From Alphaproteobacteria bacterium (GTDB lineage Bacteria; Pseudomonadota; Alphaproteobacteria; Rs-D84), in assembly GCA_017616785.1 (NCBI GenBank), contig JAFZXK010000019.1, forward strand, positions 5,321 through 69,320: 64,000 bases of DNA, read 5' to 3'. The notes under the pieces were generated by a model. It saw only the letters and a program-made list of their open reading frames with translations. It ran no database searches and was not told the origin of the DNA. A program made the position numbers and the translations under genes. This document shows, piece after piece, positions 41,120 through 44,000 of this stretch; position 1 is the stretch's first letter; the number at the start of each line of letters is the position of its first letter.

Positions 41120-41662
41120 TCAAGAACCTCTTGTTTGTGCTAACATTTCGTTTAATTTACCTAGCAGATTATAACGTTGTCCGTATAGTTGTTCCAGATT
41201 TTTATTAAAAATTATGTCTGTTGGTTTTGCCTGTTCAAAAGAAATGTCGTGAAAGGTTTGTGTTGTTGGCCTCCCGTTTACCCGCATACCAGGTAGCTCA
41301 CGTTTTTTTACTGAAAAACATATTACAGGTATTTTTGGGTCATATTGATTTACTTCAAAATAAAAATTATGTTTTTTACTGATAATCGTCTGAACGTCGG
41401 CGGGATATAACAAGTTATCAACAATACAAAAACTTATTTTTTCTATGCTTTCCTTTTTAAGCACAGTACCATTTTCTGCGTGGGATTTATCGTCTTTATC
41501 GATAGCGCGTTCTTCTAAATCAACCGAGACAATATGCGGTTCAGAACAATTGATTTTAGAAATGACGCCTTTTATTTCTTCAATGGTCAAAAAATCATCA
41601 GACCTTGTAAATATGTTATCATGTATGGTATATGTACAGACCTTTTCTGTTTTGATGTTCAT
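41120..41662 (-). CDS. hypothetical protein, member of a local paralogous family (180 aa)
   Basis: Shares TIEEIKG / LLYPADVQTII / KIPV / NLEQLYG blocks with the ORFs at 42862-43341 and 43401-44000. Confidence 0.55.
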   Translation of the reverse strand: MNIKTEKVCTYTIHDNIFTRSDDFLTIEEIKGVISKINCSEPHIVSVDLEERAIDKDDKSHAENGTVLKKESIEKISFCIVDNLLYPADVQTIISKKHNFYFEVNQYDPKIPVICFSVKKRELPGMRVNGRPTTQTFHDISFEQAKPTDIIFNKNLEQLYGQRYNLLGKLNEMLAQTRGS

Positions 41663-41735
41663 TACAGGACTCCTTTTTTTTGATTATAGCAAGGAAATTT
41701 ATGTATGCAAATGAATAAGTGGCAAGTGCAAATTT

Positions 41736-41792
41736 CCCTCTGGCTATAGCGGTGCCACGGCGGTGCTGTGCACCGACGGGCGGGGTGTCGTT
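41736..41792 (+). repeat. GC-rich palindromic element (variant)
   Basis: ccctctggctatagcggtgccacggcggtgctgtgcaccgacgggcggggtgtcgtt. Shares its head and the GGGGTGTCGT tail with 45725-, 63246- and 63378-. Confidence 0.7.
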
Positions 41793-41816
41793 CCACCAAC
41801 ACTAGCCACTAACACT
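41793..41816 (-). repeat. degenerate heptad array (CCACTAA-type on + strand) supplying the queH stop codon
   Basis: ccaccaacactagccactaacact. The queH frame stops at the cta at 41802-41804. Confidence 0.7.
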
Positions 41817-42374
41817 TGTCTCGTCTCCGCTTTGCGGAGACGGACTAACCGCTCTCATACTAAATTCGCAACCGCAATAATTTTGACGGTAAAAATCAGA
41901 TTCTCGGTTTATTTGCTGACGCAATTTTTCATCCCATTTAATTGGTAAATATGTGATTTCGTCTAACGCAGATTCCGCCGCCGTGTCAACCTGGGCTTGG
42001 TCTTTGTGGCGGGAAACACCGAACACAGACGCCACCGCATCGTACCCATTTTCGCGCGCAAATTTTTTCGCATATTCGAAACGATATGCAAAACAAATAC
42101 TGCACCGCGCGCCGCGTTCCGGTTCGTTTTCCAATCCGCGAACCGCCGCGCGCCACGCATCATGGTCGTATTCACAGATTTTATATTTCACACCCAACTT
42201 TTCGCAATATTTTACTTGTTCCTGCATGCGGCGCATGTATTCGGATTCTGGCCAAATATTTGGGTTAAAAAACAGGACGATAAAATCATCTATGCGTGGG
42301 ATTTCGCCGCATAGCAATTGTTTTATCGCGCCCGCACTGCATGGCGCACAACAAGACATAAGAACAAGTTTCAT
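41802..42374 (-). CDS. queH: epoxyqueuosine reductase QueH (DUF208)
   Basis: MKLVLMSCCAPCS N-terminal Cys motif and ...NYCGCEFS near the C-terminus. The Met at 42374 is preferred to 42401. Confidence 0.8.
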   Translation of the reverse strand: MKLVLMSCCAPCSAGAIKQLLCGEIPRIDDFIVLFFNPNIWPESEYMRRMQEQVKYCEKLGVKYKICEYDHDAWRAAVRGLENEPERGARCSICFAYRFEYAKKFARENGYDAVASVFGVSRHKDQAQVDTAAESALDEITYLPIKWDEKLRQQINRESDFYRQNYCGCEFSMRAVSPSPQSGDETSVSG

Positions 42375-42381
42375 TTTATTT

Positions 42382-42858
42382 TTACCTGTGTTTTTTTTCA
42401 AAAAAATTCCAAAGCTCTAACGGCATAGATTCAATATTCGTTGGAAACACCCCATACAGTTTTCTGTTAACAGCTAAAAAATCAGTATCCGATAAACCTC
42501 GCGATATCAAATAATTTTGAATTGTTGGAATGCCATTTTCATTATGCACAACCCAAAATTTTGCGCTTCTTTCGACACGATGAACAATTGGATAACCTTT
42601 TATATAATTGTTAAAATCAAGAATTTCATCAGGAGTATGTGGGTCAAAAGAATCATAAAAGTAAACAGTGTAAGAAGCCGTTATTTCAGCAGGAAGTTTA
42701 GTAAACATTGTTATGTCTTTTATAAAACTGTTAAACATGATACGATTTGCTTTTTGCACACGACTATCTAGTACAACATTGCCATGTTCAAAAACAATGG
42801 TTGTATAATTTATAGCGCTGTAAAGTGTCCTGATCCGTCGAGGTGTTTTGTTTTTCAT
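42382..42858 (-). CDS. hypothetical protein, probable divergent member of the local paralogous family (158 aa)
   Basis: PDEILDFNNY and NRKLYGVFP resemble the family blocks. 3-nt gap to the upstream paralogue. Confidence 0.5.
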   Translation of the reverse strand: MKNKTPRRIRTLYSAINYTTIVFEHGNVVLDSRVQKANRIMFNSFIKDITMFTKLPAEITASYTVYFYDSFDPHTPDEILDFNNYIKGYPIVHRVERSAKFWVVHNENGIPTIQNYLISRGLSDTDFLAVNRKLYGVFPTNIESMPLELWNFFEKKHR

Positions 42859-42861
42859 TGC

Positions 42862-43341
42862 TTAATACACTTTTTCTTTGGTTTTTTTTAACAATTGTAC
42901 AAGTCCGACTGGTGTTTTCCAAAGGTTTTCGTCTTCTGGCCAAATTTGATTCAGTGTTTTTCTTTCCACAAAAACATCGGCATTTGTTAAATAGTGCCAG
43001 CGAACAAAGATATGCCCCGGCACACCGTCCAACATAACCGGTTTGTTTTCCGTATTGTCTGCATTGAAATTAAATGTGTTTTTATATTGGTCGGTTAAAA
43101 AGTTTTCTATATCTTTTGGATAAATCAATCTATCACCAACCAAAATTTTATATTTATCTGTCACCTTTTTATCAATAACGCGTTCTATTATAATTGTATA
43201 TGGTATATTCATATGCAAAGGATATTTGCGCGTATATTCCGCCAAATCTTCAATTGAATAAATTTGTTTGAACGGACCATTATAGCACTGTGTGCAAGGC
43301 CCAGTATGGCGTAAATAAAATTCAACATTTTCATTATTCAT
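42862..43341 (-). CDS. hypothetical protein, member of the local paralogous family (159 aa)
   Basis: SIEDLAEY / LIYPKDIENFL / NKPV / TLNQIWP blocks. Confidence 0.55.
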   Translation of the reverse strand: MNNENVEFYLRHTGPCTQCYNGPFKQIYSIEDLAEYTRKYPLHMNIPYTIIIERVIDKKVTDKYKILVGDRLIYPKDIENFLTDQYKNTFNFNADNTENKPVMLDGVPGHIFVRWHYLTNADVFVERKTLNQIWPEDENLWKTPVGLVQLLKKTKEKVY

Positions 43342-43400
43342 TCTGTTATCCTTTTGTTTTCTACATTCTCTCTCACAAAAAGATTGGTTATCTGTATTTT

Positions 43401-44000
43401 TTATTTTATCATTTCTGTTTTTTTTCTAAACATGGCGCGTAAAGCACTGGGAATCTCGTTTGTTTTTGTCGGCCAAAGTTGTTTAAGGTCCTTGTCGACA
43501 ACAATATCACTATCGGTCAACGGTCTGCACACCAAAGGTCTTTCGCGCACAGGCGCATCCGGCAAAAAAGACCCATTATGTTCATACGGTCCCGTAAAGA
43601 ATATGGGTTTGGTCGTGTCAAATTGCGCGAAGTTCTTCCAATTCACATCTTGGCATGCATCGCCCAAAGCGTTTTTCTTTACATATTCTTGCAAATCGGA
43701 AAGATAGGTCAATTTTTTCGCAACAATAATGTTAACGGCGTCTGTTTGTATATCCTTGCCATCATTTTTCGCTAACTTGTATTGATGGTTTCTGTTGGCA
43801 ATAACGGCAATGAAATATACCTGACGTGCCACATTCAATGCATAAGAAACATGTTGCCCAAGCCCCTGGCAATTTATATATTGTTTTAACCCATCAATGT
43901 CGTTCACGGTTTGTTCGCGCCCATAATTTTCGGGTTCTGCATATTTAACGACAAATGTTACTACTGGTTCTATTTGCATTTTGTTACTCCTTGGTTTCAT
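43401..44000 (-). CDS. hypothetical protein, member of the local paralogous family (199 aa)
   Basis: DIDGLKQY / LTYLSDLQEYV / TKPI / DLKQLWP blocks. The start is either 44000 (overlapping the metG end) or the Met at 43979. Confidence 0.55.
   Translation of the reverse strand: MKPRSNKMQIEPVVTFVVKYAEPENYGREQTVNDIDGLKQYINCQGLGQHVSYALNVARQVYFIAVIANRNHQYKLAKNDGKDIQTDAVNIIVAKKLTYLSDLQEYVKKNALGDACQDVNWKNFAQFDTTKPIFFTGPYEHNGSFLPDAPVRERPLVCRPLTDSDIVVDKDLKQLWPTKTNEIPSALRAMFRKKTEMIK

Follow-up and report, generated by a model that had tools for sequence, protein, structure and literature searches.

Small genes lodged in the metG-queH-fabD string of Candidatus Enterousia belong to an undescribed, lineage-restricted family

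Introduction

Why should several small, AT-rich open reading frames (ORFs) without a recognised domain be set between the genes for methionyl-tRNA synthetase (MetRS, encoded by metG), epoxyqueuosine reductase (queH) and fabD, all on one strand and mostly with little spacing? The question is raised by a stretch of 64,000 nucleotides, here called the window, that spans positions 5,321 to 69,320 of contig JAFZXK010000019.1 in the alphaproteobacterial assembly GCA_017616785.1. An initial annotation, made from the sequence alone, saw three such ORFs and a probable fourth as a paralogous family, and offered effectors, diversified immunity or antitoxin-like proteins, or a new system co-transcribed with its neighbours as explanations. 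The four ORFs, which do lie on the same (minus) strand as metG, queH and fabD, are designated X1 to X4, with X1 to X3 between metG and queH and X4 between queH and fabD (Table 1). They are real genes, and the hitherto undescribed family to which they belong is restricted to Candidatus Enterousia and its close relatives. That they are genuine, confined to two junctions, expressed from borrowed signals, subject to turnover and dispensable is, taken as one joint claim, very probable.

The source organism belongs to Candidatus Enterousia, in the order Rs-D84, and is a gut bacterium whose genome is smaller than 1 Mb; the nearest metG loci are in metagenome-assembled genomes from the rumen and other animal guts that are labelled either Candidatus Enterousia or uncultured Alphaproteobacteria. 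Enterousia, with genomes of 0.75-1.0 Mb and neither a tricarboxylic acid cycle nor respiration, is predicted to be obligately symbiotic with, or parasitic on, other cells (PMC12306168).

Homology of the four genes

Direct BLASTP comparison among the four ORFs is weak, the best alignment being that of X1 with X3 over 46 aa (E 7e-5, in a tiny database), and so the colinear blocks on which a common origin had been proposed needed testing. The blocks do fall in the same alignment columns. When matches are followed transitively through a set made up of the four ORFs, the ORFs of 80 related loci (numbered with the prefix L; P-numbers denote family proteins or clusters) and 24 database homologs, one cluster joins X1, X2 and X4, with bottleneck E values of 1e-22 for X1 to X2 and 4e-11 both for X1 to X4 and for X2 to X4. 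A hidden Markov model (HMM) built from 24 X1 orthologs only and run against 7,983 ORFs gives E values of 8e-12 for X2, 0.011 for X3 and 0.019 for X4, with the best-scoring ORF outside the junctions at 0.53; a core HMM that has X4 in its training set gives X4 an E value of 8e-32. The evidence of intermediates and profiles makes the homology of X1, X2 and X4 firm at the level of sequence, weak though the direct pairwise comparisons are.

X3 is a harder case. It shares with the others only its C-terminal ~30 aa (hhalign probability 82%, score 37.6), and in a control with shuffled columns 59 of 60 shuffles scored no higher than 17.7, the remaining one being an artefactual match of 9 columns. The suggestion that it is probably a fourth member holds, with the C-terminal module as the one part that is recognisably common, and on its sequence X3 is best described as a divergent member with the C-terminal motif alone in common. 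Homologs of X3 itself are found in L005 (about 40-43% identity), L012, L020 and L021.

Distribution of the family

An exhaustive profile search of 1.84 billion representative proteins puts the family at 152 clusters, defined at 50% identity, when the limit is E<=1e-3 and at 71 when it is E<=1e-10; almost all have 160-205 aa, and none bears a name. Genomic context was inspected in 80 loci from genomes, in 11 from metagenomes and for 8 further contigs, and wherever an X gene occurs in them it is at the metG/queH or queH/fabD junction. The only family member seen elsewhere is P0163 (GCA_016648615.1), a 242-aa protein with a full X-like domain and a Cys-rich C-terminal extension whose gene is flanked by an EamA gene and a major facilitator superfamily (MFS) transporter gene. 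X1-like proteins of 41-47% identity occupy the queH/fabD junction in L095-L099. Natural head-to-tail fusions of two copies occur (P0028 and P0136).

The few odd fusions come from very short contigs, and chimerism accounts for at least one of them. P0127, in which a Peptidase_S74 tail-fibre chaperone domain is joined to an X C-terminus, is almost certainly an assembly chimera, as its contig (L088) has 2236 nt and a coverage of 1.8. The same contig carries an AraC-type HTH_18 gene, a fragment of an Enterousia array and, from a translation read by eye, a GreA-like ORF, and the 106-aa ORF that follows P0127 closely matches the 103-aa junction ORF of Enterousia in L005. An apparent integrase fusion, P0073, shows no more than a Phage_int_SAM signal below threshold, and its contig, of 1.4 kb, is also probably chimeric.

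The description of the genes as a lineage-specific paralogous family without a known domain is borne out by Pfam, NCBIfam, PADLOC and PHROGs, none of which gives a match for any of the seven junction ORFs of the window; for the PADLOC anti-phage defence models, no family was found at E<=1. Across 87 family members, Pfam at E<=1 gives nothing recurrent and at E<=0.01 a single chance match. Among described immunity families only Imm41 appears, in one of the 87 and at chance level (E 0.085). Neither the translocation domains BID and XVIPCD (Pfam on the 87 members, and sequence and fold searches of the PDB) nor nuclease or recombinase domains (GIY-YIG, HNH, LAGLIDADG, PD-(D/E)xK, integrase) are recognised in X proteins. 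No relative of the family is present among IMG/VR viral contigs, INPHARED phages or PLSDB plasmids, and around the X ORFs there are no flanking repeats or attC-like sites, the identified flanking genes being housekeeping ones.

Selection and turnover

The X genes are dispensable and yet under purifying selection. Ratios of non-synonymous to synonymous substitution rates (dN/dS) between orthologs are 0.24-0.35 for X genes, against 0.05-0.10 for metG and queH, so that selection maintains the X genes, though they are less constrained; at non-synonymous sites they evolve 3-5 times faster than their neighbours. For the orthologs of X2 in L002, L004 and L036 the ratio is 0.24-0.30. The X1-X2-X3 array is identical on six contigs, of which two derive from independent sequencing runs.

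On the metG tree, X-bearing genomes are interspersed with X-free ones. The genes had been described as wedged into a string of essential genes, and while they are indeed interleaved with housekeeping genes, that position makes them neither essential nor functionally linked to translation or lipid synthesis, since they are absent from several close relatives with tight junctions. The closest relative at the locus, L026, has none of the seven junction ORFs of the window, though its fabD and fabG products are 97-99% identical and the synonymous divergence (dS) of the backbone is 0.25-0.68.

The members found in the loci sort into about 16 subfamilies, with a mutual identity of only about 25%, which are combined into mosaic arrays with a copy number of 0-4. 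In the window the array reads C-A-F before queH and K after it; elsewhere it is B-A (L036, L004 and L003), B-J (L026), B-F (L005), A only (L002, L007 and L011), C only (L001) or empty (L010, L039 and L022). X1 and its counterpart in L001 are separated by a saturated dS of 4.1, whereas for the adjacent metG dS is 0.85, which indicates replacement by an old allele or paralog and not merely fast divergence. Within subfamilies, the dS of the N-terminal half differs 3-5 fold from that of the C-terminal half in several pairs, a contrast that points to intragenic recombination. The repertoire turns over as copies are duplicated in tandem, fused, lost and exchanged by homologous recombination through the conserved flanks, with mosaic arrays as the outcome; as the flanks are highly conserved, homologous recombination is the simplest route of exchange.

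Predicted expression from neighbouring signals

The ATG of X1 is 4 nt past the stop codon of metG, and an AAGGAG sequence lies within the last metG codons. This start is at 43979, not at 44000 as had been annotated, because all homologs begin with MQIEP or MKIEP. The minus-strand gaps are 59 nt between X1 and X2, 3 nt between X2 and X3 and 7 nt between X3 and queH, and a single nucleotide separates the X4 stop codon from the fabD ATG. The gap between queH and X4 is 139 nt, outside the range of 1-59 nt originally given, and it contains a conserved promoter-like element.

L002, L026 and L036 have this element, with its AAGGAG, at 90-96% identity and immediately before fabD. Seven other loci have an X gene in the queH/fabD junction, and in all of them a promoter-like element precedes X and not fabD. 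Since the conserved fabD promoter precedes X4, X4 would be the first gene of the fabD transcription unit, and we infer that it was inserted exactly between the fabD ribosome-binding site (RBS) and the fabD ATG. X1 to X3, with X1 behind an RBS inside metG, appear to extend the coupling of metG to queH. To judge from these signals, the gene string comprises at least two transcription units, and the X genes would borrow their expression from the signals of their neighbours.

The composition of the genes was correctly noted as AT-rich: GC content is 0.40 for X1 and 0.33 for X2-X4 (0.25-0.31 at third codon positions), against 0.45-0.53 for the neighbours. The spacer between queH and X4 (41663-41801, minus strand) also holds a GC-rich stretch of ~55 nt, 96% identical in L026, that precedes the fabD promoter-like element.

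Predicted fold and conserved motif

At about 160-200 aa, the X proteins are soluble domains of the alpha+beta kind. AlphaFold2 models of X1 (pLDDT 83.6, pTM 0.81) and X2 (pLDDT 92.0, pTM 0.86) have the same order of elements, beta-beta-alpha-beta-beta-alpha, followed by four short strands and a terminal helix. No X protein has a hydrophobic segment resembling a transmembrane one, the maximum 19-aa hydropathy being below 1.2, as the initial annotation had anticipated, and their isoelectric points (pI) are 6.2-9.3. Foldseek comparison of both models with the PDB gives best E values of 0.086-0.096 and TM-scores no higher than 0.30, comparison of the X1 model with BFVD gives a best E of 0.02 with a low TM-score, and a sequence profile search of the PDB returns chance matches only. 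The fold may, provisionally, be new, being set apart from the PDB and BFVD only.

Across 87 diverse members there is no invariant column, and hence no invariant polar residue. The best conserved positions are R52, Y92, D95, P125, D158, Q167-I-W-P170, P177, L180 and E189, and the most conserved part, present in every paralog, is a C-terminal motif of about 45 aa, DIVVDxNLxQIWPxxTGxxPxxLxxLLxKxxE. The last 30 aa have a mean net charge of +2.9 (sd 2.1), compared with +0.8 (sd 2.8) for other proteins of the window.

Two candidate relatives were rejected. A motif resemblance to the ribosomal protein eL31 (D-V-x-I-D-x-x-L-N-x-x-W, with a PDB profile E of 0.5 over 38 aa) was rejected with hhalign, which gives a probability of 0.2% against a human RPL31 sequence entered by hand. 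The other was the MetRS tRNA_bind domain (PF01588), of which X might have been a detached version. Pfam finds that domain in the long metG of L014 and never in X, the X HMM misses long metG ORFs, and X occurs together with long metG in L016-L018.

The locus and its other residents

The metG-queH-fabD-fabG-mnmG backbone is syntenic in about 45 loci. In many relatives it is very compact, the metG stop codon overlapping or abutting the queH start (ATGA, or a gap of 1-2 nt) and 1-2 nt separating fabD from fabG and fabG from mnmG. The clades nearest to the window have 0-3 additional co-oriented ORFs at the same junctions, and the junction lengths range over 0-1755 nt for metG/queH, about 30-790 nt for queH/fabD, 1-870 nt for fabD/fabG and -1 to 560 nt for fabG/mnmG.

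Table 1. Features of the gene string in the window, in order along the minus strand
Feature	Coordinates	Strand	Remarks
tRNA-Val(GAC)	45888..45964	-	upstream of metG; ARAGORN and Rfam
metG, methionyl-tRNA synthetase, short form, 541 aa	43984..45609	-	80 related loci
X1, subfamily C, 192 aa	43401..43979	-	24 ortholog clusters, 44-100% identity
X2, subfamily A, 159 aa	42862..43341	-	orthologs of 72-82% identity in L002, L004 and L036
X3, divergent, subfamily F, 158 aa	42382..42858	-	only the C-terminal module recognisably common
queH, epoxyqueuosine reductase	41802..42374	-	Pfam QueH on homologs
sigma-70-like promoter TTTGCA-17-TATAAT with AAGGAG	41683..41711	-	conserved upstream of fabD in relatives
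X4, subfamily K, 180 aa	41120..41662	-	queH/fabD junction; linked via L012 13253-13867, E 4e-11
fabD	40243..41118	-	
S1, 77 aa	40007..40240	-	fabD/fabG junction
S2, 80 aa	39768..40010	-	fabD/fabG junction
S3, 106 aa	39445..39765	-	fabD/fabG junction
fabG	38704..39432	-	
mnmG-like gene	37061..38704	-	end of conserved backbone
108-aa ORF	36724..37050	-	after mnmG; GC 0.32

S1-S3 are a second tandem family, confined to the fabD/fabG junction of relatives, where alone the HMM of the family finds matches. S1 (E 4e-13) and S2 (3.5e-18) were both in its training set; S3, which was not, scores 0.0025, against 0.068 for the first outside ORF. The S family has no Pfam match, and L012 carries a fused double copy of it. 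A further family, Cys-rich (CxxC...C), fast-evolving and of about 90-108 aa, is found in the metG/queH junction of the sister clade with long metG (L013, L014, L025, L027, L029, L031 and L041) and is unrelated to X or S. Neither it nor the S family is a relative of X, the hhalign probability being about 0.1%.

A family of 103-111 aa beginning MSQNIKYT... lies immediately upstream of X in L002 (2356-2691), L005 (12268-12579) and L011 (11667-12002), and in L088 (1455-1775) just downstream of an X C-terminal fragment. It has no Pfam match, and with X it may form a two-gene module. In the queH/fabD spacer of L002 (~3760-3960) and L036 (~13250-13440), reading by eye suggests that the opposite strand encodes a small basic protein (MAHKR...), with a hairpin after its ORF, which if real would be one more occupant of the junction.

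In L027 (12302-13432) and L083 (2852-4042) queH has an in-frame DUF559/MTES_1575 endonuclease-like domain inside the QueH domain, an insertion that looks selfish and would mean that such elements do visit the locus. The fabG/mnmG junction of L007 (9089-9646), L011 (15832-16380) and L022 (13832-14380) holds a family of 182-185 aa whose L007 copy matches a GNAT acetyltransferase (Acetyltransf_3), and the fabD/fabG junction of L034 (14155-14742) holds a thymidine kinase gene, so that ordinary genes use the junctions too. A 251-aa ORF is also among the residents. With residents so varied, the phenomenon seems general to the backbone, each junction being a small hotspot with residents of its own.

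The backbone genes themselves have features of note. The MetRS of the window lacks the C-terminal tRNA_bind domain that is present in the 663-aa form of relatives (as in L014, 10001-11989), and the short form appears in two separate clades on the metG tree; QueH has a C-terminal extension of 14 aa relative to most relatives. The ORF that follows mnmG has neither a homolog in the related loci nor a Pfam match, and Rfam identifies no element other than tRNA-Val.

Elsewhere in the window, virB3 (15463-15765) and virB4 (15762-18179) lie amid housekeeping genes, and a pilus gene set (486-5131, minus strand) encoding a T2SSF platform protein, a T2SSE ATPase and a PAP_PilO-like accessory protein adjoins lpxC and lpxK; the initial annotation was right to list virB3, virB4 and a pilus ATPase. 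Pfam-less ORFs are present at 9971-10546, 10843-11445, 18043-18813, 31169-31666, 31997-32377 and 36724-37050, and at least the first three of these and the last are in AT-rich patches with a local GC content of 0.32-0.35. The ORF at 18043-18813, just after virB4, could encode a VirB6-like protein, while those at 9971-10546 and 10843-11445 are not paralogs of one another.

Possible roles

The role put first, tentatively and at well under an even chance, is that of a repertoire of proteins directed at a partner or a competitor, in its likeliest version as exported substrates. X proteins would on this proposal be non-enzymatic, modular binding proteins in which the C-terminal module of ~45 aa would dock one common partner, exported substrates being recognised through that module, and the faster-evolving N-terminal half would provide specificity. 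The ranking, ahead of an immunity-like repertoire, is made because the lifestyle is predicted to be partner-dependent and because virB3 and virB4, of a chromosomal VirB-type type IV secretion system (T4SS), are present amid housekeeping genes. Also in its favour are the lack of an invariant polar residue and the standing of the C-terminal motif as the most conserved part of the protein and the only one to survive in the X3 subfamily. Several points weigh against it. Export is putative, and so is the binding partner; Pfam recognises neither a known translocation domain nor a eukaryote-like domain in X proteins; and in the models the C-terminal motif is a well-ordered, integral part of the fold (pLDDT >90) and no flexible secretion tail, its positive charge being modest. 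Some 25 kb lie between the X genes and virB3/virB4, no virD4 is seen in the window, and no pair of sequences, gene-wide or by half-gene, has a dN/dS above 1. Conservation of R52, D95, D158 and Q167 in 84-91% of members also leaves room for an enzymatic role. A more specific version is less probable still: X would be a putative exported or partner-directed arsenal with a new fold, the C-terminal module would be a new recognition signal for the VirB-type T4SS or for a shared target, and the junctions would be a site of cassette exchange free of mobile elements.

The nearest competitor, itself rather unlikely, is that the X proteins are cytoplasmic neutralisers of toxins from competing bacteria or from other Enterousia strains, divergent paralogs having been accumulated and exchanged. 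Tandem paralogs that belong to a single family but have diverged, that differ in copy number between strains and that form recombination mosaics of 16 subfamilies are what such a repertoire would look like, as are small soluble proteins without an invariant catalytic residue; expression would be constitutive, from housekeeping promoters, the habitat is a dense gut community (PMC12306168), and the ORF of 103-111 aa directly upstream of X in L002, L005 and L011 could be a partner. The search for known toxins, immunity families and translocation domains for X, by domain searches and in the sampled loci, found none, however. The neighbours in about 60 junction-bearing loci are metG, queH, fabD and small Pfam-less ORFs, with no toxin domain or remnant and no integrase or other signature of a mobile element, and the one Imm41 match is at chance level. 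Immunity families usually track widespread toxins, whereas X is restricted to one genus, and neutralisation would not require the common C-terminal motif that X conserves best of all.

That X proteins are instead accessory cofactors of the translation genes, as partners of the truncated MetRS, of QueH or of tRNA metabolism, is improbable. X always flanks metG or queH, X1 looks translationally coupled to metG, and in the sampled loci X is commoner beside short metG lacking tRNA_bind; but the close relatives L010, L039 and L022 have short metG and no X, and in L016-L018 X stands beside long metG. Nor would a cofactor be expected to vary from 0 to 4 copies and among subfamilies of such low mutual identity, and X has no similarity to tRNA_bind and a range of pI unlike that of a nucleic-acid binder. 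There is about as little in favour of selfish cassettes that spread into junctions by their own activity with no benefit to the cell. The clean presence or absence of entire ORFs at fixed places between conserved genes, AT-rich and foreign-looking composition and the endonuclease-like insertions in queH of L027 and L083 could be so explained, but X proteins show no motif of a nuclease, recombinase or transposase, and neither repeats nor attC-like sites flank their genes. The family never occurs elsewhere in the window or in the loci, it is absent from viral, phage and plasmid collections, and its selection pattern is that of a maintained protein. Least credible are decaying pseudogenes or chance ORFs in AT-rich spacer, as low GC content, the lack of annotation and the very few homologs of X3 might suggest. 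This idea, raised at the outset as what would undo the family, is close to refuted by the dN/dS values, the 152 clusters of full-length homologs, the confident fold predictions, the tight spacing with RBS in place and the identical array on six contigs, two of them from independent runs.

Relation to known systems

Bartonella Bep effectors have a BID domain and a basic tail, and Xanthomonas X-Tfe toxins have an XVIPCD domain. With these T4SS effector arrays X has in common tandem paralogs, a conserved C-terminus, a variable N-terminus, a VirB-type T4SS in the genome and perhaps, as its charge there is modest, a positively charged stretch in the last 30 residues. The X proteins differ in being single domains of 160-200 aa without FIC, BID, XVIPCD or a toxin domain, their export is putative only, and their genes sit in a housekeeping backbone and not beside virB/virD4. 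Orphan immunity arrays, such as SUKH/Imm arrays and the acquired interbacterial defence clusters of Bacteroidales, are alike in their divergent small cytoplasmic proteins, strain-variable content, recombinational exchange of alleles and dense gut ecology; X, in contrast, has no toxin gene or remnant, recombinase, mobile element or Imm match, and is one genus-restricted family with a conserved C-terminal motif.

Replacement-type flexible genomic islands resemble the X locus in fixed position, conserved flanks, divergent alleles or cassettes, exchange through homologous flanks and atypical composition. The X locus, however, is one to three small ORFs set exactly at stop/start or between promoter-RBS and ATG of a compact operon, and here there is a private family for each junction (X, S and the Cys-rich family). 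The free-standing homing endonuclease genes of T4-like phages are also single junction ORFs, present or absent, co-oriented and tightly spaced, but X has no nuclease motif, has not spread elsewhere and is on a cellular chromosome. Unlike integron gene cassettes, X ORFs are without attC-like inverted repeats, and their identified flanks are housekeeping genes.

Implications

What is new here is the family, and possibly the fold. The phenomenon is a known one, a hypervariable accessory hotspot between core genes together with a multigene family peculiar to one lineage of host-dependent bacteria, and it is its form that is unusual, embedded as it is in an operon and free of mobile elements: accessory genes are slotted exactly from stop to start, or from RBS to ATG, in compact operons with no visible mobile-element machinery. 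With two confident models that have no neighbour in the PDB or BFVD, the X family is a reasonable target for structure determination. Enterousia (Rs-D84) is a widespread uncultured gut lineage, and because a genome of less than 1 Mb keeps little that is useless, the X proteins, dispensable yet kept, duplicated and exchanged so quickly, are strong candidates for mediating contact with partner or rival cells.

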